Sequence record: PP627280.1 | DNA length: 58,460 nucleotides | Strand: one strand, 5' to 3' | Origin: Escherichia phage SHIN8 | Shown here: piece by piece, positions 25,953 through 57,439 of the stretch | Numbering within the stretch: position 1 is the stretch's first letter | How the letters are laid out: the number at the start of each line of letters is the position of its first letter | Notes under the pieces: model-generated | The model's input: the letters and a program-made list of their open reading frames with translations, nothing else | The model's database searches: none | What the model was told of the DNA's origin: nothing | Translations under genes and position numbers: made by a program

Positions 25953-26179
25953 TAGCGATCCTCGATTGCTCTAATTGTGGTTAAATCTAATTCGCAGGTT
26001 GGAGGGTATCCATAAAGTCCCATTTGTTTTCCTTGTGCATTAAACCATGTACCTGACGGATCCTGCCATTGCTTAGGTGTCTTGTGGAGAAATACTACTC
26101 TGTTTTCACCGTAATAATTAATTCTTACGCCTGTGTGAGTATATTTACGTTTACCTTTTGGTCTTCTTAAGTTAGCCAT
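25952..26179 (-). CDS. hypothetical protein
   Basis: 75 aa, basic. Confidence 0.35.
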   Translation of the reverse strand: MANLRRPKGKRKYTHTGVRINYYGENRVVFLHKTPKQWQDPSGTWFNAQGKQMGLYGYPPTCELDLTTIRAIEDR

Positions 26180-27099
26180 CAGAACAACTCCATTACACGA
26201 TCACGGAATGTGCCGTCATGGGTGGCGTTAATGTTTGCAGCAATTACACCATACGCCCATAAGTTGAAGGCAGCACGTGATTCATAGATTGTTGATAAAC
26301 GTTCGTAAGTGAAACCGTTTTGCTCAAGGTATTTAAGGACAGCGTCTTGTTCAATTTCAGTTAATGTTGAAACATGCTTACCAAAATGATGACGGTCCGG
26401 TGACTTATCTGAAACGCGCATTAGTCCCCACGGAGGGGTAACCACACTTCCAAACGCTGCCGCTTGTATCCAGGAGGATGAGTCGCAGCTATACCACGGG
26501 TAACGTTCCATAATGGTTGTGGACGTAATACCAAACGCATGAAGTTTAATCTTAGCACGTCCGCTACCGTCGCAAATGTATTTGTCCCACATGCGGTCAA
26601 GCCAAGTCTTAAGCGTGTCCGTGGAACGCCCTACCATGCCACCGATAGTGATATATTCGTAGTTCTTCATGTAGTATTCAAGATAGCGGAAGTCCTCCCC
26701 AAAGTGAAAGCAAGGTAACGGTTTAGCACCGCGTGCTTCCATTTCAAGTTGGTTACGGTAGGTTTGCAACGGATCACCGATACCATCGAGCACCGACGCC
26801 ATTACTGCGCCATCTTCTACGCGAAGGATGTCTTTGTTGCGCTTGATGTATTCGCAGTATTCAACAATATCAATGTGAGCACCTAACGAGTGCGCGGAGA
26901 ATGCACCGGAGTCGAGAAACACTTTAGCCCCGTCCGCACGCATTTGATCAACATACTTCTGACGCCCAACGTAGTGGTAGGATTCCAAAATATTTGGAAG
27001 GCTATTAACAATGTCTTTTTCCCGATCGTTTAACTTTTCATATCGTTGTTGACCAGCTTTATAGCCGTTGGTATATACCGCAGCGACAAACAGATGCAT
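26179..27099 (-). CDS. dpdA: DNA-guanine transglycosylase (TGT-like, DpdA-type)
   Basis: 306 aa; VFLDSGAFSAH TGT-type motif; adjacent to preQ0 synthesis genes. Confidence 0.7.
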   Translation of the reverse strand: MHLFVAAVYTNGYKAGQQRYEKLNDREKDIVNSLPNILESYHYVGRQKYVDQMRADGAKVFLDSGAFSAHSLGAHIDIVEYCEYIKRNKDILRVEDGAVMASVLDGIGDPLQTYRNQLEMEARGAKPLPCFHFGEDFRYLEYYMKNYEYITIGGMVGRSTDTLKTWLDRMWDKYICDGSGRAKIKLHAFGITSTTIMERYPWYSCDSSSWIQAAAFGSVVTPPWGLMRVSDKSPDRHHFGKHVSTLTEIEQDAVLKYLEQNGFTYERLSTIYESRAAFNLWAYGVIAANINATHDGTFRDRVMELF

Positions 27100-27656
27100 T
27101 ATTCCACCTCAAATTTATTACGCTTAGATCTGTTTTCTTCAATAGATAAGTATTGTAGGTTACTAAGGACGTGAAGTCCACTGACTCTTTTACCGCAAAG
27201 AGGTATAATATGATCAACCTCCATCCCATCCGGGCAGTTAGCGTAGAACAATTCAATTTGTTCTTTTTCAGACCACGCAGGGATTCTTAAAGACCTTTTC
27301 TTATGCACTTCAAGGGAATGTAACCTTGATCTAGCTTTACCGTAATCTGTCTTAGCCCAGCGTTTCAGCCTTTCTTTATTTTGTTCTTTACCTTTCTCAG
27401 TAGAATTATAAGCAGCTTTTGAACGTTGAAGGGCTTCTTTTCCTTTCTGTGACTTATGGTATCTCTTAATAGCATTCCTTGCAGCTTCTGTTTTATTGTA
27501 AATACGCATTCTTTTCTTTCGTGCTTCTCTGTCACAAGTAATACAATAGCCATCTACAGTCTTTCTTTCAGAAACATGACCTTTCGCACAAGGCTTACCA
27601 GTAAAATAATATTTCAAACCTCTTTCTTTTGCTTCAGCTCTTGTGATAATTTCCAT
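27099..27656 (-). CDS. HNH homing endonuclease
   Basis: 185 aa; C-terminal DHIIPL...N...N HNH motif; Cys pairs; AT-rich codon usage. Confidence 0.65.
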   Translation of the reverse strand: MEIITRAEAKERGLKYYFTGKPCAKGHVSERKTVDGYCITCDREARKKRMRIYNKTEAARNAIKRYHKSQKGKEALQRSKAAYNSTEKGKEQNKERLKRWAKTDYGKARSRLHSLEVHKKRSLRIPAWSEKEQIELFYANCPDGMEVDHIIPLCGKRVSGLHVLSNLQYLSIEENRSKRNKFEVE

Positions 27657-27670
27657 TGTCTTATACCAAC

Positions 27671-27708
27671 TAAAAAGCCCATACCAGTATTATGACCGAT
27701 ATGGGCTT
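27671..27708 (-). terminator. putative intrinsic terminator between folE and HNH/dpdA
   Basis: AAGCCCATA/TATGGGCTT 9-bp stem followed by TTTTT on minus strand. Confidence 0.4.
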
Positions 27709-27726
27709 GATCTGTAAAGCTATCTA

Positions 27727-28368
27727 TTATTTACAAGCTTCAAGGAACTCCCGGCGCCATTCTTTACCAATATCGCTACCATGCTCCAGTTCTGTAGCGC
27801 CCCGGAATGCTTTAGTAATAGTAGAGCTGCCGCATACCTGCTTAACACCGCGTGACTCCATGCACATATGCTTGGCGTCAACATAAACACATACAGCTTT
27901 CGGGTTTAAATGCTCCTGAATAGCGTCTGCAATCTGGTTAGTAAGACGTTCCTGAACTTGCAGTCGACGACTAAAAGCATCCACAACGCGAGACAGCTTA
28001 CTAAGCCCAACAATCTTCCCATTGGGGACATAACCCACGACAGCATGACCGATGATAGGAGCCATGTGATGCTCACAATGACTATACACAGGGATATCAC
28101 GGACAATGACCATTTCATTGGTGTTTTCCGCCCCGTCTTCAAAGGTCTTAAATAACCCAGCAATATCTACATCGTAACCGCTAAACCACGTTGCATAAGC
28201 TTTCGCTACACGCTCCGGAGTTTCCTCCAGTCCTGGGCGCAGAACCGCGCTAACTTCAATTTGGGATAGTAAAGTACGCACAGCGTTAGCAATACGGAAT
28301 TGAACACCTTCACTATTAATACTATATTTAGACATGGTTTGCAGTTTCCTTGTTGTTAATGTGGTCAT
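27727..28368 (-). CDS. folE: GTP cyclohydrolase I
   Basis: 213 aa; SHCEHHMAPIIGHAVVGYVP active-site region. Confidence 0.85.
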   Translation of the reverse strand: MTTLTTRKLQTMSKYSINSEGVQFRIANAVRTLLSQIEVSAVLRPGLEETPERVAKAYATWFSGYDVDIAGLFKTFEDGAENTNEMVIVRDIPVYSHCEHHMAPIIGHAVVGYVPNGKIVGLSKLSRVVDAFSRRLQVQERLTNQIADAIQEHLNPKAVCVYVDAKHMCMESRGVKQVCGSSTITKAFRGATELEHGSDIGKEWRREFLEACK

Positions 28369-41667: not shown

Positions 41668-42423
41668 CTATTTCAAATAGCGGGAAGTCATAATTGGATG
41701 CAAAGACACTTCTTCCTCAGATGTAACCACATTGCGCTTCCCTGAGCAAGGCACTTCTAATTCAATTTCAGCTGCCCCACAGACACGGCATTGATGTAAT
41801 GCAATTTCACCATTTCTATCCTTGATGCACTCAGGGGCGTCCGGATCGCTATTAATATATAATTCATGACCGTTTATAAAAGGTCGCATATCCCGTTTAC
41901 GATAAGCTACACCCGTTGACCCGAAACCATTAGCACCGCGCTCAGTAGTCTTGAGCTCGTCTACTTCTACCAATTGCACGCTGGGCAGCTTAATAAGCAT
42001 AGCTTGCGCAATGCGATCACCATGATTGACAGTAAAACTACCATCGTTATCGATGGTCATCTTAACCTTAAGTTCTCCAGTGTAGTCGCTATCAATGACG
42101 CCCACGCAGTTTGCCAGACGCACGTCATTTTTGAATCCGTGCCCGCTACGGGAATAGACCATAAGCGCGTAACCTTCAGGAATATCAAACGCTAACCCTG
42201 TGCGGAATATGTGCTCGTAAGAGAAAATGATTTGTTCACAACCGTCTTCACTTTTGAGATCCGCGTGCAGGTCAAAGCAAGCTGCCCCGGCAGTGGCAAA
42301 CGCTGGTAGAATTGCCGTGTCAGTTAAACGTTTCACACCGACCGGAATTGTGCTTAATGATGCAGCAAATTTTTCAACATCAATTGCAAAAGAATTTTTT
42401 GTGATATTTAATACATCAGTCAT
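41668..42423 (-). CDS. dut: dUTP diphosphatase with C-terminal zinc-ribbon extension
   Basis: 251 aa; GVIDSDYTGE, SRSG, RIAQ, GFGSTG motifs; C-terminal CRVCG...PCSG. Confidence 0.7.
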   Translation of the reverse strand: MTDVLNITKNSFAIDVEKFAASLSTIPVGVKRLTDTAILPAFATAGAACFDLHADLKSEDGCEQIIFSYEHIFRTGLAFDIPEGYALMVYSRSGHGFKNDVRLANCVGVIDSDYTGELKVKMTIDNDGSFTVNHGDRIAQAMLIKLPSVQLVEVDELKTTERGANGFGSTGVAYRKRDMRPFINGHELYINSDPDAPECIKDRNGEIALHQCRVCGAAEIELEVPCSGKRNVVTSEEEVSLHPIMTSRYLK

Positions 42424-42455
42424 AATTTCACCTTATTGAATTGAACCGCGATCAA

Positions 42456-42977
42456 TTAACCATTGTTGGAAAATTCACCGTGCAAAATTGCACGCATTTC
42501 CTTCAGCCATTGTGTCGCTTTATTTTTACCTTCATCATTAAATGGGAAATACCTATAATAGTTTTTACCATTCAGCCGAATCTGCGCTAACCAACTATTG
42601 CTGCTTTTAGATTTGTTATGTGTAAGACCTTTAACCCCGCTTGAATTGTTACTATATTTAAATCTATTATGTGCGTTCTGACTAGAATCGCAAGCCCTCA
42701 AATTGTATTGAGCATTATTCAGTTTATTGCAGTCATCATGATCAATTTCTTCAGGTTCTTCATCATAGAGCATTTTCCAGATTATACGGTGGACAAAATA
42801 TGAAATGCCATCAATCTTTGTTCTAAGATGACCAGTTGTATGAACCCATCCAACGCAAGATCCCTTTGGAGCTCTGTTGCTTCTATGAATCTTCCATGTT
42901 AATGCACCCGTCGACGGATCATAGTCAAACAGCTCCAGAAGCTGCTCTTGTGTAAGGTGTATAGGCTTCGCTTTCAT
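42456..42977 (-). CDS. HNH homing endonuclease with AP2-like DNA-binding domain
   Basis: 173 aa; HRIIW...DHDDCNKLNN HNH_3-type motif; AT-rich. Confidence 0.65.
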   Translation of the reverse strand: MKAKPIHLTQEQLLELFDYDPSTGALTWKIHRSNRAPKGSCVGWVHTTGHLRTKIDGISYFVHRIIWKMLYDEEPEEIDHDDCNKLNNAQYNLRACDSSQNAHNRFKYSNNSSGVKGLTHNKSKSSNSWLAQIRLNGKNYYRYFPFNDEGKNKATQWLKEMRAILHGEFSNNG

Positions 42978-43444
42978 GATATGAGTGAACCCCTCTCAAT
43001 CAAGTAGCATTTCGCGTGCGCTTTAAAAATAATGCGGTAGTCATCAAGACTAATTTCCGCGCGGATGGAATCTTTAACTTCATACCACTGCCATTCACCA
43101 TTACTGAAGACAACCGGATTAAGCGGTAGAACAACCTTCCATCCTTTACGTTCTATTTTATACATCAGAACTGGATATCTGCCAAGCTCTTTAGCAGATT
43201 GAACAGTCTGCTTCCACCATGTGTTTACTTGTGGCGTAGCATGGTTTTTTACTTCAACCGCATGGTGGCATGTATTGCTAATGTCGCAACCCCCGACCGC
43301 ACTTTGATTCTGGTTACGCTGAGCAATAGGTTTTTCCGGTAACTGCATCCCCAGCTCTGCGTAAATTTCGGCATAAATTGCATTAAAGAAGTCACATACT
43401 TCCCGCTCACCGCGTTGACCTTTAGCGCGAATATTTACTGCCAT
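42974..43444 (-). CDS. PD-(D/E)XK-type nuclease (possible Holliday junction resolvase)
   Basis: 156 aa; GQRGEREV...D...EVK arrangement. Confidence 0.4.
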   Translation of the reverse strand: MAVNIRAKGQRGEREVCDFFNAIYAEIYAELGMQLPEKPIAQRNQNQSAVGGCDISNTCHHAVEVKNHATPQVNTWWKQTVQSAKELGRYPVLMYKIERKGWKVVLPLNPVVFSNGEWQWYEVKDSIRAEISLDDYRIIFKAHAKCYLIERGSLIS

Positions 43445-45172: not shown

Positions 45173-47512
45173 TTCCTCTTCTCCTAAGTTTGCCATAATA
45201 CCTTCAACATCTTGCGTAATGCGCCAAGCGGCCCCAGTAAATCCCAGTTTGATAGTTTCCTCCCGTGTTACCGGAACAAGAGCACCCATAGCAACCATCT
45301 CTTTGATCGTAGACTCAATTGCTGCGGACAATCCGTGGTGATAGTTTTTAAACGCGGACTTACTTGCAAGACGAGTAGTAATATCACCCCGCGTGATAAT
45401 ACCTTCTTTACGCAGATCTACACGTTTAACTTTCACCCAATCTTTAGTTAGATAATTGACACAAACTTGGCACATAGTACGGATACGAGCTTCGTCATTA
45501 GTACCGATACCCCCACTATGCCATTCCTTCATAATGATATCCTGTCCATGACGCACAAAGTCTAAGGCCCATTGTACATGATAGGTCTGCACAACCGGAT
45601 TGATCCAGTTTTCTCCCACAGCTAACAGGGCGGATAGACGTAATACCTTCAGGTGCGCACGGTTCCACGGCTGACGGATCGCTTCGTCTTTGGTTGCGTT
45701 AATATTACGGTCACATTCATCGTTAAACTGATCACATAATGCTTCCGCTTCTGGACTAAACTGCACTTCAATACTTTGATGCTTTGCCATTGCGACTAAG
45801 GTGTGGTTAACAAGATGGCACACCATATCCCGCAAATGCTGATCCATTGTAGTCTGCTGGTTCTTGTTTAAAGGTGGTCGATCCCCTTCATAGCGGACAA
45901 CATGGAAACGGGATAAGAATCCATCCTCCATCATTTCACGGGTTAAAGCTTCAAAAAACGTGTCCGGTGTCGTTTCGCCCATGATGCTATAGGCCACACC
46001 TTGTTGAGCTTCCGTATTATTAGCCTTATCAGAATAAGACATACCACCAACAATAGACATCTGACCGGACTTTTGATAAACATCGGTAAGGTCATTCTTG
46101 AAGCTTTGCATCGGTGAACCTGCTGGCGCCGTTGCCATTGCTTTGATAATCTTACCAAACTCACCGTTCAAGTTGATAAAAGATTGTTTGTCTGCAAAAG
46201 ATTTACGCAGTGCGGAGCCGGAAGCGCATCGGTCAAAAGATACAAAGCTATGAATCTGCGGAAACGGTTCCTGAAGCTGGCTAACTATATTAGATAGGCC
46301 GCTGTTCAACGTTTCTTTACCAACACCTGAACGAGCAATAAGGACGAAATATCCATTAAGACCAGATTGCGGAATCTGCCAAACCTTCCCGCATACGCCA
46401 GCCATAAATCCTAGTGCTGTCACAATAGAAATTTCTTTCACTGGTCGGACAGATGCTTTGTAGATGTACTTCGCAAGCTCCCCAGCAAGTCCCGGCGGCC
46501 AGTCAATGGCGGTTGCATCAATAGATGTACTTTCTGCAACTACTGTCTGCCCCTGTGTTGTTTCAACAGTTACGGGCATTTCCGCTACCTGCTGCATTGC
46601 ACTGTGTGCCGCTTGCATACGGGCAGCATAATCCCGCGCCAGCGCCGCTACGTTTTCCTGGGCAATGCGCTCACGCTCCATGCGACCGCGACACATACGC
46701 AAGCAACGGTCAATATGAACATTGTTCTTATTAGCCTTCTCACGTTTGCCCAGTGCACTGTAACGGAACAGACGACGACATTGCTCATTACTTTCCGTGT
46801 AAAATGCATACATAGAAATAAGGGCAAGATCTGCTTCAGACTGGGAAGGGAAACCCATTTCAACCCATTCACCATTGAATAACCGCGCATACTTATCGCC
46901 GTTATCTGCTTCAAGTGCGCGCTGATGAATAGTTGCATCATCTTCTACCGGATCTTTTTCTACCAGTTCAATTTCATATGTCTTGCGCTGAAGATCAATT
47001 TCATTCACAAGCATAGTAAGGTAATGATCACGTTCTGCGACTGGTTTGTTGTAGACGGGATTACCCGTGCAGATAATAAAACGCTCCTGACTATAAACCT
47101 CGACACCATCACGTCGACGACCTTTACCGATGTTACCTCTTAACCACAGGTGGACACCCAAGCCTGAGCGACTCACTTCGGTGTAAGTGTCGAACGCAGT
47201 CATGATCTGTTCGAAGCGGCGCAACTGCTCCGGCGTCGTGTGCTTCTTGGGATCAGGTTCATTGGTTGCGTTCTTCACATCCAGGTCGATGCAGGTGAAC
47301 GGGTCTTGTGCAGTAAGCACAAAGCCAATATAAGGTTTATTGAAATGAGCGGCGCAACCTTTAGCAGCTTCAAACGTCATAAGCATATCCGGATCGGTAA
47401 CGTCCGCCGCCATCAAACGTCCAATATCGCTATCCCATACCAACGGCTTTTTATCCGCATCGGCGACCGCCCATTGTGGGAAAGCTTTAATTTCAGCGGG
47501 AAACAGTTCCAT
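45170..47512 (-). CDS. DNA primase/helicase (primase-polymerase-like N-domain plus P-loop NTPase)
   Basis: 780 aa; Walker A ARSGVGKETL in C-terminal half; acidic catalytic-like CIDLDV...GLGVHLWL N-domain. Confidence 0.65.
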   Translation of the reverse strand: MELFPAEIKAFPQWAVADADKKPLVWDSDIGRLMAADVTDPDMLMTFEAAKGCAAHFNKPYIGFVLTAQDPFTCIDLDVKNATNEPDPKKHTTPEQLRRFEQIMTAFDTYTEVSRSGLGVHLWLRGNIGKGRRRDGVEVYSQERFIICTGNPVYNKPVAERDHYLTMLVNEIDLQRKTYEIELVEKDPVEDDATIHQRALEADNGDKYARLFNGEWVEMGFPSQSEADLALISMYAFYTESNEQCRRLFRYSALGKREKANKNNVHIDRCLRMCRGRMERERIAQENVAALARDYAARMQAAHSAMQQVAEMPVTVETTQGQTVVAESTSIDATAIDWPPGLAGELAKYIYKASVRPVKEISIVTALGFMAGVCGKVWQIPQSGLNGYFVLIARSGVGKETLNSGLSNIVSQLQEPFPQIHSFVSFDRCASGSALRKSFADKQSFINLNGEFGKIIKAMATAPAGSPMQSFKNDLTDVYQKSGQMSIVGGMSYSDKANNTEAQQGVAYSIMGETTPDTFFEALTREMMEDGFLSRFHVVRYEGDRPPLNKNQQTTMDQHLRDMVCHLVNHTLVAMAKHQSIEVQFSPEAEALCDQFNDECDRNINATKDEAIRQPWNRAHLKVLRLSALLAVGENWINPVVQTYHVQWALDFVRHGQDIIMKEWHSGGIGTNDEARIRTMCQVCVNYLTKDWVKVKRVDLRKEGIITRGDITTRLASKSAFKNYHHGLSAAIESTIKEMVAMGALVPVTREETIKLGFTGAAWRITQDVEGIMANLGEEE

Positions 47513-47523
47513 GATTTATCCTT

Positions 47524-47739
47524 TTACTGAGAACTAACCATTGCACAACCGATGGCAGCAAATAAGTGCTTCTTAGTCTCGTTGATCACTTTCTCTGCAT
47601 CCAGATAGCTCTCATAATGTCCAAGGTAAATAATAGTCCCTGCAACCATGATATAAGCTGTGCGGTAATGCATGTAATGCCCAATGAACCATCCCTGCTC
47701 CCGAAGCTTATTTTGTCCAACTTCACTAAGTACCATCAT
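47524..47739 (-). CDS. hypothetical protein
   Basis: 71-aa ORF. Confidence 0.35.
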   Translation of the reverse strand: MMVLSEVGQNKLREQGWFIGHYMHYRTAYIMVAGTIIYLGHYESYLDAEKVINETKKHLFAAIGCAMVSSQ

Positions 47740-49401: not shown

Positions 49402-49734
49402 TTAGAGCTGTACAGGTATGAAGTGGGCTAATGTGTCGTCTGACATGATACCCGACAATTTTTCGCTTACCCATTCGGACCAAATGCTATCCGGTTCCTG
49501 GCGGTGTACAAACCAGATTTCGGAAGTGCCTTCTTTGCGCATCGGCTTCACTTCTACAAGGAACTTGTCCTGCATGAGGCGGGTGAAGCAGACGCTGGTC
49601 ATTGGAACCGGCTTTTCGTGTTTATTGTAATAAGGAGTCAGTAATTTATTTCCGAAGTTAGCAACTTCATAAACTGTTCCTTTGCGAAGACCTCTGATGT
49701 CTGTGTAAGAGCGGATAAATGTTTTCATGTTCAC
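49402..49734 (-). CDS. hypothetical protein
   Basis: 110-aa ORF. Confidence 0.4.
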   Translation of the reverse strand: MNMKTFIRSYTDIRGLRKGTVYEVANFGNKLLTPYYNKHEKPVPMTSVCFTRLMQDKFLVEVKPMRKEGTSEIWFVHRQEPDSIWSEWVSEKLSGIMSDDTLAHFIPVQL

Positions 49735-49778
49735 TCCTAGGGCTCCCGCAGAAGCCCGTTGGTAGATGTGGTTATAGA

Positions 49779-50393
49779 TTATGCGTCCAGTCCGTTGTAT
49801 TTGCGCCAGGCGTAGAACTGAATGGCGACTGTTGTCCCGTTGTAAGAAGGCATTGCAGCTTTCATTTCTTTCAGCTCCGGCGTGCGACCCAGTTCAGCTA
49901 AAAGTTTGTCGCCCATTGCCCACACTTCGGCGGTTTTTCCTTTCAGAGGCTTGCGAGCGCCATTTTTGAAATCACAGCGAGCAGCTTTTGCATCCTGTTT
50001 TGGCGCGGCAGCTTTTGGCTCTTCAATTTTGATTTCAGAAACCTGCGTGGCAGCTTTTGCGTGTTTCATATCTTTCTCTTCCTCCTGCTCCAGAGCTTCG
50101 AGGCAGCTTTTGACGATTTCCGGATTTACCATCGGGCGCAGTACCGAGACGCTGGCAGCTGGCGCGGCGGTCGGTGCCGGGACTTTCTGCTCCGGCAGCT
50201 GCGCTTTTTTATGGTCGCGCAGCACCTGAAGCACTTCCTTCTCGACGATGTAAAAACCGATCTCGTCCTGATGGATAAGCTGTTCGTGTGCGTCGCGTGC
50301 AACCTGGCCCCAGCGGGTCTTAAGGGCGCGGCGTGCATTCGTTTTCATGGTGTAACGCATTTTGTCCTGTTCGCGGTGAGTTACTTTAGACAT
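49779..50393 (-). CDS. hypothetical protein
   Basis: 204-aa ORF, Ala/Lys-rich middle. Confidence 0.4.
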   Translation of the reverse strand: MSKVTHREQDKMRYTMKTNARRALKTRWGQVARDAHEQLIHQDEIGFYIVEKEVLQVLRDHKKAQLPEQKVPAPTAAPAASVSVLRPMVNPEIVKSCLEALEQEEEKDMKHAKAATQVSEIKIEEPKAAAPKQDAKAARCDFKNGARKPLKGKTAEVWAMGDKLLAELGRTPELKEMKAAMPSYNGTTVAIQFYAWRKYNGLDA

Positions 50394-54844: not shown

Positions 54845-55051
54845 ATGGAAACTCCATTAGCTAAACAAATGATAGAGCGTGCGGATCGGGACGGTTTACC
54901 GGAAGACCATGCTATGCGTCGAACCGCCCAAGTGTTTGACGAGATTAGCGTTAAATATGCTATGGGTAAGAGCACCCCTAAAGCCTTATTAGGTGCTTGG
55001 GCTCGCGCTCGACGCTGCTGGTGTAACTATACCGGAGAACAGCTTATATGA
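54845..55051 (+). CDS. hypothetical protein
   Basis: 68-aa ORF. Confidence 0.35.
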   Translation: METPLAKQMIERADRDGLPEDHAMRRTAQVFDEISVKYAMGKSTPKALLGAWARARRCWCNYTGEQLI

Positions 55052-55534: not shown

Positions 55535-55718
55535 GACCAAACTATACGCCGGATTGTTTTTATTTGCGACGTTGATGTTCGCTGGGCTTTATACCTATAC
55601 AGTAGTCGAACAACCTTCCACGGTTATCCGAATCTTTGCAAGTACAGGGCTTTGCATCTGTCTTATTCTATTTGTTTTATGCATTGTTATTATCCAAGAC
55701 CAAAGGAAAGTTAAATGA
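55533..55718 (+). CDS. small two-helix membrane protein
   Basis: 61 aa, two hydrophobic segments. Confidence 0.45.
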   Translation: MTKLYAGLFLFATLMFAGLYTYTVVEQPSTVIRIFASTGLCICLILFVLCIVIIQDQRKVK

Positions 55719-56179
55719 CCACAATTGCGTTTGATGGAAAAGTATTAGCTGCGGACCGTGGAGTTATGCGCGGGGAAGCTGTGACTGCTTATAAGAAAGT
55801 TCATAGCGTGAATGGACATCGTGGACGGTTTTTACTGGGCTTGTGCGGTTTGACGGCATTTACCGATCAGGTGTTGCGTTATTTTAATAGCGCGGAACCT
55901 GTTAAGTTCCCTGATATTAAACTTTACAGTAAAGATGATGATTACGGGCAAACTTGCGGTCTTGCTGTCACTCCGGAAGGTACTTGCCATTTTATTTATA
56001 ATGATGGTACTTTGAGTGAGCCCATGCTGGATGGATGGGGATCTGAGGGTAGCGGTTGTGTGTTTGCTGCTGGTGCATTAGCTGCTGGTGCAAGTGCGAG
56101 CGAAGCTATTGAGCTGGCAATTAAACACACCACATGTGCATTCCTGGGAGTTGATACAATATCGTTTGAGGGTTTTTAA
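55715..56179 (+). CDS. HslV-like Ntn-hydrolase (proteasome beta-subunit-like peptidase, putative)
   Basis: 154 aa; N-terminal MTTIAF (Thr after Met), KKV, GLCGLTAFTDQVLRYF and GSEGSG segments parallel HslV. Confidence 0.5.
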   Translation: MTTIAFDGKVLAADRGVMRGEAVTAYKKVHSVNGHRGRFLLGLCGLTAFTDQVLRYFNSAEPVKFPDIKLYSKDDDYGQTCGLAVTPEGTCHFIYNDGTLSEPMLDGWGSEGSGCVFAAGALAAGASASEAIELAIKHTTCAFLGVDTISFEGF

Positions 56180-56180
56180 A

Positions 56181-56672
56181 ATGGAATGGTCTTCCATATT
56201 CACTTATTTGGATGGAAAGCTGTTCTGGAAAACTTCTAGAGGCGGTAGAGTTATACCAGGAGCACTTGCTGGTCATGCTACAAAGAGGGGTTACGTCAAA
56301 ATACGATGCGGTTGTAGTTTCTATCTAAGGCATCGCATAGTATGGGAAATGCATAATGGGTCCATTCCCGAAAATATGCAAATAGATCATATTAATCACG
56401 TTCCTGGAGATGATAGGATAGAGAATCTTAGATTAGTTACAAGTACATTAAATAATAGGAACGTAACCAGATCTAAGCTTAATAAGTCTGGTGTTACTGG
56501 TGTTTGCTATCACAAAAGAAATAAAAGATGGATAGCTTATATTAATACACAGGTCGGTCAAGTAAGACTTGGCTCTTTTATTAATTTTGAAGATGCTGTC
56601 AATGCTCGTAAAAATGCTGAGATTGTATATGAATACCACGAGAATCATGGAACTGAACGTAAGAGTTTTTGA
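56181..56672 (+). CDS. HNH homing endonuclease with AP2-like domain
   Basis: track ORF trimmed to ATG 56181; HRIVW...IDHINHVPGDDRIENLR HNH_3-type motif. Confidence 0.65.
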   Translation: MEWSSIFTYLDGKLFWKTSRGGRVIPGALAGHATKRGYVKIRCGCSFYLRHRIVWEMHNGSIPENMQIDHINHVPGDDRIENLRLVTSTLNNRNVTRSKLNKSGVTGVCYHKRNKRWIAYINTQVGQVRLGSFINFEDAVNARKNAEIVYEYHENHGTERKSF

Positions 56673-56916
56673 TGTTTTACCTTCACAATTAAACTGGAGG
56701 ATAAAAGATTTTTATAACTATGTCCAAGTGAACGATGATATTTTCTTCACTGATTGTGAGGAGGTAGCTATTGCGATTATTGATAGTCTGCAAACTAATG
56801 GCCTTGTTATCTTTTGGGATGGGGTTAACGATTACTCAGTATATTCAGAAAAGTATCTTGGCGAAGGGAACTCATTATTCGCTAAGTCCTGCGTTCTGGC
56901 ATTCCTTAATAGATAA
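56647..56916 (+). CDS. hypothetical protein
   Basis: internal ATG of track ORF 56569-56916; start uncertain. Confidence 0.3.
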   Translation: MELNVRVFDVLPSQLNWRIKDFYNYVQVNDDIFFTDCEEVAIAIIDSLQTNGLVIFWDGVNDYSVYSEKYLGEGNSLFAKSCVLAFLNR

Positions 56917-57001
56917 TCCGTCATATCCAATTCAGCTTGCTCCTCTTGATCAAAGCCTGTTAATATTATCAAGCCTAAATCAAGCGGAGGAGGCTTTATC
57001 T

Positions 57002-57439
57002 ATGGCACTTCAACCTCGTGGTATTCGTAATAACAATCCAGGCAATATTCGCTGGGGTGATAATTGGCAGGGCTTAGTTCCTGCTGATAAGCGAACCGAT
57101 AAATCTTTTGCTCAATTCACGCAACCGATTTACGGCATTCGTGCGCTAGCGAAAATCCTGACAAACTACACCAAACGTGAAGGCTTGCCCAATGTGGGTA
57201 AGAAAAACATCGACACTGTACGTGAAATTATCGCTCGCTGGGCACCGCCTAACGAAAACGATACGGAAGCGTATATTCGCTCTGTTGCCAAAGCAATTGG
57301 TGTTCAACCTAACGATCCAATTAATGTCTTCGACAAGGCAATTATGTCAGGATTGGTGAAAGCAATCATTCGTCATGAAAATGGCATGATGCCCTATACC
57401 GATGACGTAATTAACCGCGCTATTGCAATGGTACTTTAA
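57002..57439 (+). CDS. endolysin (putative peptidoglycan hydrolase)
   Basis: track ORF trimmed to ATG 57002 with GGAGGAGG RBS; conserved GIRNNNPGNIRW segment; directly upstream of holin and spanins. Confidence 0.5.
   Translation: MALQPRGIRNNNPGNIRWGDNWQGLVPADKRTDKSFAQFTQPIYGIRALAKILTNYTKREGLPNVGKKNIDTVREIIARWAPPNENDTEAYIRSVAKAIGVQPNDPINVFDKAIMSGLVKAIIRHENGMMPYTDDVINRAIAMVL

Follow-up and report, generated by a model that had tools for sequence, protein, structure and literature searches.

The 58,460-nt sequence of Escherichia phage SHIN8 (accession no. PP627280.1), hereafter the window, contains three genes for putative HNH endonucleases, HNH1, HNH2 and HNH3, that are probably mobile, or were so until recently, and appear to have been acquired independently of each other as free-standing homing endonuclease genes; from comparison with the sequences of related phages, we give this interpretation a probability of roughly 80%. 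HNH1 (positions 27099–27656, minus strand; 185 amino acids) is an open reading frame (ORF) between folE (27727–28368) and dpdA (26179–27099), HNH2 (42456–42977, minus strand; 173 amino acids) lies between a PDDEXK/RusA-like nuclease gene (42974–43444) and dut (41668–42423), and HNH3 (56181–56672, plus strand; 163 amino acids) is directly 3′ of an HslV-like gene (55715–56179). An earlier note on this DNA gave the coordinates of the three ORFs correctly, as well as the neighbors of HNH1 and HNH2 (the PDDEXK/RusA-like gene being its resolvase-like nuclease). It also placed HNH3 between the HslV-like gene and the endolysin gene, which holds for the HslV side, whereas a small ORF (56629–56916) intervenes before the endolysin gene.

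Four types of evidence agree with the proposal, already made in the earlier note, that these genes are mobile selfish insertions: their patchy presence, with exact empty sites in relatives; their AT-richness; the rewritten flanks linked to them; and the presence of an HNH1 gene that is 99% identical in the divergent Salmonella phage STP-SP5. The bias in composition with respect to the neighboring genes is real: HNH1, HNH2 and HNH3 contain 36.9, 38.1, and 36.8% GC, respectively, vs. 43.9–46.3% in the neighboring genes, while the window has 44.3% GC overall and the three genes fall within the 3rd–5th percentile of its 520-nt windows.

Megablast comparisons revealed that the 6-kb stretch surrounding HNH1 is 92–95% identical to the corresponding region of Seuratvirus phages (CAjan, Seurat, slur01, and the BASEL phages), and that the closest relatives of the window are phages KS_A3 and KS_S4. 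Among the approximately 31 Seuratviruses in the databases, which constituted our comparison set, HNH1 is present in four (KS_A3, KS_S4, ECP2304, and STP-SP5), HNH2 in three (Skure, KS_A3, and KS_S4) and HNH3 in four (slur01, SA126VB, SLUR76, and SLUR26). The remaining Seuratviruses have base-exact empty sites for each of the three genes, which is clearly not the pattern, contrary to mobility, of all relatives having them filled. The combination of genes varies by phage, and no database record contains all three. All the copies are intact ORFs that keep the catalytic motif, and those of different carriers are 96–100% identical; a near-identical copy in a divergent background is, however, seen for HNH1 only, because the genomes carrying HNH2 and HNH3 are too alike to tell. 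No extra or degenerate HNH copies were found in the window by tblastn using seven HNH/homing endonuclease proteins from the window and its relatives.

The order of elements around HNH1, on the minus strand, is folE, a terminator-like hairpin with an overlapping sigma-70-like promoter (27675–27718, minus strand; −23 kcal/mol, z −3.9), HNH1 and dpdA. The hairpin, which bounds the HNH1 cassette on the left, is identical in the five Seuratvirus junctions aligned (the window, KS_A3, CAjan, SA80RD, and slur01), and is also 100% identical in ECP2304 and STP-SP5, even where the last 100 nt of folE are only 67% identical. At the other end, the ATG of dpdA shares one base with the stop codon of HNH1, and the dpdA ribosome-binding site (GAGGTGG) is inside the HNH1 coding sequence. 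The presence of HNH1 is linked to a diverged tract at the 5′ end of dpdA (26994–27099, minus strand; codons 2–35), with 61–63% nucleotide identity to HNH1-less alleles, vs. around 97% for the rest of the gene; there are 42 nucleotide differences in the first 108 nt, affecting 15 codons synonymously and 13 non-synonymously. The tract was found in only four of 50,697 phage records, all of them HNH1 carriers, and no donor of a dpdA 5′ end of the type of the window was found in these records by blastn or by tblastn with a 45-amino acid query; all the HNH1-less Seuratviruses share one conserved DpdA N-terminus (71% identity). STP-SP5 and the window share 99% identity over the HNH1 gene and nt 1–108 of dpdA, whereas identity is 85–96% in the rest of dpdA, 78–80% in the clamp gene and 67% in the last 100 nt of folE, indicating that a unit of around 675 nt (26994–27668) has moved recently between diverged genomes.

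The interval between the terminator and dpdA has other occupants in relatives. In SA80RD and slur01, the site is empty, the terminator being followed by 22 nt with a ribosome-binding site and then by the dpdA ATG, while in CAjan, Seurat and most other Seuratviruses it contains an unrelated ORF of 68 amino acids (CAjan gp36; at 27657–27668 of the window). There are thus at least three alternative states of this slot, occupied by HNH1, by the 68-amino acid ORF or by nothing. Additionally, slur01 contains, on the folE side of the terminator and joined to the 3′ end of folE (around 27720–27730 of the window), a different endonuclease gene (gp76, positions 47257–47715 in slur01; 152 amino acids), whose product matches NUMOD3 (3e-8) and, weakly, the His-Me zinc-loop and HNH_3 models. 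From the positions of gp76 and HNH1, the folE–dpdA interval, of some 150 bp, has two separate points of endonuclease insertion.

When aligned with CAjan and slur01, in which the site is empty, the HNH2 cassette is an insertion of 542 nt that interrupts the PDDEXK/RusA-like nuclease gene 11 codons short of its stop codon. The nuclease gene is provided with a recoded replacement tail (42974–43009, minus strand; CYLIERGSLIS-stop for QWLIDRGSIQ-stop), whose TGA overlaps the ATG of HNH2 (ATGA). A remnant of the original tail (42433–42467, minus strand), which marks the insertion point, lies 3′ of, and partly within, the 3′ end of HNH2; it contains the HNH2 stop codon and matches the CAjan empty site (...AACAATGGTTAATTGATCGCGGTTCAATCCAATAA) with the exception of one base, and is followed by the unchanged ribosome-binding site and ATG of dut. 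With the original tail displaced downstream, the presumed recognition sequence of HNH2 would be split in carriers. At the other end of the PDDEXK gene (around 43445 of the window), SA126VB, VogelGryff and Dru_SM1 contain another I-HmuI-like HNH gene, whose product of 170 amino acids has 35–39% amino acid identity to HNH2 and HNH3; these three phages have a much diverged PDDEXK allele. Separately, we observed that the first ~100 nt of dut (42300–42423) and the last ~100 nt of folE (27727–27826) exist as several strongly diverged alleles among Seuratviruses, and that the dut 5′ end of the window is like that of VogelGryff and unlike those of the HNH2 carriers KS_A3 and Skure. The alleles of dut and folE do not track the HNH genes, and there are also mosaic boundaries in these genomes that exist independently of endonuclease genes.

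Gene HNH3 starts one base after the stop codon of the HslV-like gene, and its 3′ end is overlapped by 44 nt by the small ORF 56629–56916 (plus strand). This ORF and the spacer reaching to the endolysin ribosome-binding site (56629–56995, plus strand) are a diverged allele of CAjan gp87 (33% amino acid identity, E 5e-9); the nucleotide identity of this region to HNH3-less phages is 47–50%, vs. 97–100% for the flanking HslV and endolysin genes, and the diverged allele was retrieved from five records, corresponding to four phages that are all HNH3 carriers. The true start of the endolysin gene is the ATG at 57002 (MALQPRGIRNN...), such that the ORF of 222 amino acids at 56771–57439 is over-extended from a TTG; in relatives, a gene of 438 nt is annotated, and their identity to the window picks up again just 5′ of that ATG. 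Phage SeppeHuegi has an unrelated gene for a putative homing endonuclease of 156 amino acids (positions 1316–1786 in SeppeHuegi) 5′ of the HslV-like gene (around 55715 of the window). The HslV-like ORF following that gene in SeppeHuegi is annotated as shorter (414 nt vs. 465 nt).

The window also contains, on the minus strand between ORFs 49402–49734 and 49779–50393, the empty site (49735–49800) of a fourth HNH gene, found in CAjan (gp67) and KS_A3 (CDS0073) and whose product shows 46% amino acid identity to HNH3. In these two phages the gene interrupts the final codons of the homolog of the 204-amino acid ORF, with the result that the host gene gains the tail ...WRTYHGLK-stop, while the endonuclease ends with the original tail of the host gene, GLDA-stop. 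Another ORF that varies among these phages, of 68 amino acids and located at 54845–55051, occurs in the window, KS_A3 and SA126VB, and is lacking, leaving an alignment gap of 200 nt, in CAjan, slur01 and SeppeHuegi.

The same architecture recurs along these sites, with the insertion located a few codons from a gene boundary, the end of the host gene recoded or replaced, coupled translation, and a linked divergent tract. Each cassette preserves the expression of its host gene, by way of stop/start overlaps, a new dpdA ribosome-binding site or a substitute C-terminus for the nuclease. This is the look of free-standing homing endonuclease genes in T4-type phages, and one would expect it far less from ordinary mosaic cargo; our preference for mobile homing endonuclease genes is based on this recurring architecture, on linkage and on the independent distribution of the three genes. 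As with the free-standing endonucleases SegF, SegG, MobE, Hef, and SegH from T4-type phages, the genes are patchily distributed and situated between, or at the ends of, conserved genes; also as in T4-type intronless homing, linked flanking markers are replaced and other endonuclease genes occupy the same hotspots in relatives. However, the Seg proteins are GIY-YIG enzymes and MobE, although an HNH enzyme, is unrelated in sequence to HNH1–3 as far as tested.

If HNH1–3 are homing endonucleases, in a mixed infection the enzyme from the carrier would nick or cut the allele of the non-carrier, at the insertion point or close to it, and recombinational repair from the carrier genome would copy the endonuclease gene together with adjoining sequence (intronless homing). 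The site in the carrier would be protected, either because it is split by the insertion or because it is replaced by divergent sequence. The predicted targets, which we see as having an even chance of being the right ones, are the first ~105 nt of the HNH1-less dpdA, the junction between the PDDEXK tail and dut (...GCGCACGCGAA^ACAATGGTTAATTG...) and the junction between the HslV stop and the start of gp87.

Several points weigh against homing. We infer the nuclease activity, the cleavage and the homing, for HNH1–3 as well as for their close homologs, and HNH1 passes no curated HNH model. The copies of the different carriers, being 96–100% identical, differ at too few sites, which makes a test for purifying selection from the ratio of non-synonymous to synonymous substitution rates (dN/dS) uninformative. 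Likewise, we rejected a possible gradient of co-conversion along dpdA in STP-SP5 (99 > 96 > 92 > 86 > 85 > 80% identity to the window): the gradient reflects gene conservation, because the profile beyond nt 108 is no different when STP-SP5 is compared with CAjan, which lacks HNH1, and only one informative dpdA site outside of the tract (nt 156) shows the carrier state in STP-SP5. At the depth of comparisons between genera, described below, old residence with repeated loss cannot be told apart from repeated invasion for HNH1. Finally, ordinary recombination, anchored on the invariant terminator and on the dpdA stretch coding for ILESYHYVG, could have produced the diverged flanks as mosaics without the action of an endonuclease.

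This last point leads to the alternative that HNH1–3 are inactive relics, or mosaic cargo moved by plain homologous recombination in which the nuclease is irrelevant. The cassettes are indeed bracketed by highly conserved potential anchors (for HNH1, the terminator and the dpdA motif; for HNH3, the stop codon of HslV and the ribosome-binding site of the endolysin gene), and mosaicism elsewhere in Seuratvirus is illustrated by the 5′ region of dut and the 3′ end of folE, whose variation does not follow that of the HNH genes. Nevertheless, we consider this alternative unlikely: all the HNH copies are intact with their catalytic motif preserved, the same arrangement, a few codons from a gene end and with a recoded end supplied, is found at four sites, and adjacent points in relatives have been repeatedly taken by other endonuclease genes. 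Such patterns are usual for insertion driven by an endonuclease, whereas under plain mosaicism there would be no reason for the variable cargo to be a nuclease every time.

The deduced products of the three genes fall into two endonuclease families. The earlier note regarded all three as HNH endonucleases, and HNH2 and HNH3, both I-HmuI-like, match Pfam HNH_3 above its cut-off of 24.8 bits (1.7e-8 and 34.4 bits for HNH2; 1.5e-19 and 69.8 bits for HNH3). Both also match over their full length PHROG 99, labeled "HNH endonuclease" (2.5e-51 and 3.4e-57, respectively), and their homologs are already named HNH or homing endonucleases in GenBank. A profile of the HNH3 family, constructed with 35 homologs, matches I-HmuI (PDB 1U3E) at residues 1–107 (E 1e-6) and plant AP2 domains at residues ~99–150 (WRI1, 6.5e-4; TEM1, 0.017). 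HNH3 itself gives only a sub-threshold match to Pfam AP2 (E 0.0015–0.003), and PF00847 is present in about 16 of the 120 HNH3 homologs listed. An AP2-like domain, attributed to both proteins in the earlier note, is therefore supported at the family level for the C-terminal part of HNH3, and this support is solid only for this protein. For HNH2 the claim stands only in part: it aligns to the HNH3-family profile with a probability of 99.6% (hhalign), but only to residue 142, where just the first strands of the AP2-like part are aligned, and it gave no AP2 hit of its own; its best PDB match is also 1U3E, at a non-significant E of 0.59.

HNH2 and HNH3 are thus like the phage endonucleases that combine HNH_3 and AP2 domains (PHROG 99; PF13392 plus PF00847), sharing with them PHROG 99 and HNH_3, as well as, for the homologs of HNH3, PF00847; they differ in that the AP2 score of HNH3 is under the Pfam cut-off and the C-terminus of HNH2 is degenerate (YRYFPF for LG.F). 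The HNH3 family shares the N-terminal domain plus HNH motif with I-HmuI, and a small size with the HNH homing endonucleases I-HmuI, I-HmuII, and I-BasI, from phages SPO1, SP82, and Bastille. However, I-HmuI lies within a group I intron whereas genes HNH1–3 are free-standing, and the DNA-binding C-terminus is AP2-like in the HNH3 family and composed of helical modules in I-HmuI. Besides, I-HmuI is a nickase, whereas HNH1–3 may either nick or cut both strands. SPO1 and SP82 are Bacillus phages containing hydroxymethyluracil (hmU), and the DNA of SPO1, the host of I-HmuI, accordingly carries a modified base. The earlier note raised the target specificity of HNH1–3 in a genome predicted to carry modified guanine, and this question is a legitimate one. 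T4 and SPO1 provide precedents for the action of homing endonucleases in a phage whose DNA is modified, and the T4-type free-standing enzymes function in hypermodified DNA.

For HNH1, there was no Pfam hit at E ≤ 0.01, and its identity as an HNH endonuclease depends on its motif, the profile of its family and a fold model. The Pfam model PF01844 is reached only at E 0.06–0.2, with 12–14 bits against a cut-off of 21.4, and HNH_3 and HNH_4 are likewise sub-threshold; among 38 diverse homologs, just three match PF01844 at E < 0.01. The protein does match PHROG 1035 (2e-16), with PHROG 1081 covering its N-terminus. Alignment of the 38 homologs distinguishes three parts, consisting of an N-terminal Cys/His module (YYFTGKPC..GH...C..C), which may form a zinc ribbon, a charged helical linker of variable length and a C-terminal DH...N...N block, with the consensus P.W...FY..CP.G.EVDHIIPL.G..VSGLHV..NLQYL...EN..K.N. 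Residues C23, H27, C38, C41, D148, H149, N166, and N175 are invariant, and H162 is nearly so. The best PDB matches of the family profile are HNH domains from Cas9 (E 0.018), aligned on the D-H...N...N motif, which falls on the active-site motif of Cas9 HNH. Also, an AlphaFold (AF2) model of HNH1, with a predicted local distance difference test (pLDDT) score of 87.9, shows two strands plus a helix at the C-terminal motif, after some 85 residues of helix, and nearly all of its top Foldseek matches are HNH nucleases. We accept HNH1 as an HNH-type nuclease because these pieces of evidence converge, each of them being weak individually.

A search of a large protein collection retrieved 399 homologs of HNH1 at E ≤ 0.001, aligning end to end, and at least 561 IMG/VR loci encode relatives; no precomputed Pfam domain is recorded for any of the 120 homologs listed. 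Members of the family are also found in T7-like, Vibrio, Xanthomonas, and Ralstonia phages, in some of them in several copies. In one homolog, the YFTGK.C..GH...C..C module is tandemly doubled. This doubling and the match of PHROG 1081 to the N-terminal module alone suggest that the module behaves as an independent unit, presumably for DNA binding. HNH1 is alike end to end to the PHROG 1035, or "YYFTGKPC", endonucleases, variously labeled endonuclease VII, homing endonuclease or McrA, a family without a Pfam model or a solved structure, while its homologs in Seuratvirus and Nonagvirus are designated "hypothetical protein" in nearly all records. No description of the sub-lineage associated with dpdA in Seuratvirus, Nonagvirus and Nipunavirus turned up in the searchable literature.

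Using BLAST, we found that the Nonagviruses SE1, JenP1, SP8, and FritzHoffmann have in the same place an HNH1 homolog of 162–164 amino acids, with 44–46% amino acid identity, which is missing from 9g, JenP2, and JenK1. The linked divergence is also repeated in this genus, with nt 1–140 of dpdA 65–70% identical between the carrier SE1 and the non-carrier 9g, vs. 96% for the rest of the gene. In SE1, the HNH gene is situated after dpdA codon 2, using the ribosome-binding site and ATG of dpdA, and a new dpdA start is inside the 3′ end of the HNH gene. The layout folE-terminator-HNH-dpdA is the same in the Pseudomonas Nipunavirus PaMx25, and a homolog with 44% identity was found, by sequence match alone, in NP1, JG012, PAB2, and others. 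Among the three genera, amino acid identity is around 50% for the HNH proteins and 70% for DpdA, both with a star-like divergence.

Around HNH1, the window contains dpdA, folE, queD, queC, and queE; by its sequence, it corresponds to a CAjan/Seurat-like Seuratvirus (Queuovirinae), whose DNA would be modified with dPreQ0. In CAjan, the deazaguanine cluster swaps part of the genomic G for dPreQ0 in the motifs GA and GGC (PMC7544227; PMC8594841). HNH1 could then be a working accessory of this 7-deazaguanine module, as a partner of DpdA or as a nuclease against unmodified DNA, instead of a selfish gene. The presence in the three genera of the layout, with the stop/start overlap onto dpdA, and the similar star-like divergence of HNH and DpdA would fit such a role. 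Yet HNH1 is missing from most Seuratviruses, including CAjan, as well as from 9g, and modification has been established experimentally for the DNA of both CAjan and 9g (PMC7544227; PMC8594841). Additionally, a family-wide tie of HNH1 to deazaguanine genes was rejected, since no DpdA, FolE, QueC, or QueD lies within 3 kb of any of the 80 best-matching IMG/VR loci of the family, and the family extends to T7-like and many other phages. The gene is also AT-rich, polymorphic among close relatives and laterally transferred with a foreign dpdA 5′ end, and we find an accessory role improbable, somewhat more so than relics or mosaic cargo. A T4 endonuclease VII-type junction resolvase or an HK97 gp74-type packaging-associated HNH protein, suggested by the label "endonuclease VII" of PHROG 1035 and by the naming of some GenBank homologs, is very improbable, because HNH1 has no reported match to Pfam Endonuclease_7 (PF02945) even at E ≤ 10, its nuclease motif comes at the C-terminal end, behind a long linker, unlike the order of the Endonuclease_7 domain, its gene is not adjacent to terminase genes, the phage already has a PDDEXK/RusA-like nuclease, and a gene absent from most close relatives cannot have an essential function in replication or packaging.

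Within the interpretation of HNH1–3 as mobile homing endonuclease genes, it is conceivable, although we think it a long shot, that the sub-lineage of HNH1 is a dpdA-specific homing endonuclease gated by the modification that dpdA installs, which would cut only an HNH1-less dpdA that is unmodified or not yet modified. The predicted dpdA target tract contains 14 GA/GGC sites, counting both strands, these being the modification motifs of CAjan (PMC7544227). Both Seuratvirus and Nonagvirus have HNH genes associated with the start of dpdA, and one Nipunavirus has the same layout; nothing specific on endonuclease genes at the start of dpdA, or on homing endonucleases in Seuratvirus, was found in the literature searched. 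If gating were true, newly replicated DNA or the DNA of a co-infecting competitor would be candidate substrates, the swapped DpdA N-terminus of 35 residues might alter DpdA, and the spread of the parasite would be coupled to the anti-restriction system of the phage, with the enzyme as a possible weapon between co-infecting Queuovirinae.

HNH1–3 would therefore be an ordinary kind of phage parasite and an example of a well-known phenomenon, with the modest twist that one of them sits on, and rewrites, the start of a DNA-modification gene. HNH1 and its homologs can now carry the label of putative homing endonuclease family. In the carriers, dpdA begins with 35 codons of foreign origin, which is relevant to phylogenies of DpdA and to comparisons of its specificity. 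CAjan ΔqueC mutants, obtained using CRISPR-Cas9, exist (PMC7544227). Together, the window and its relatives constitute a natural panel of four sites, with filled and empty alleles in a background of around 95% identity, that is suited to asking whether homing endonucleases tolerate, avoid or exploit DNA modified with 7-deazaguanines.

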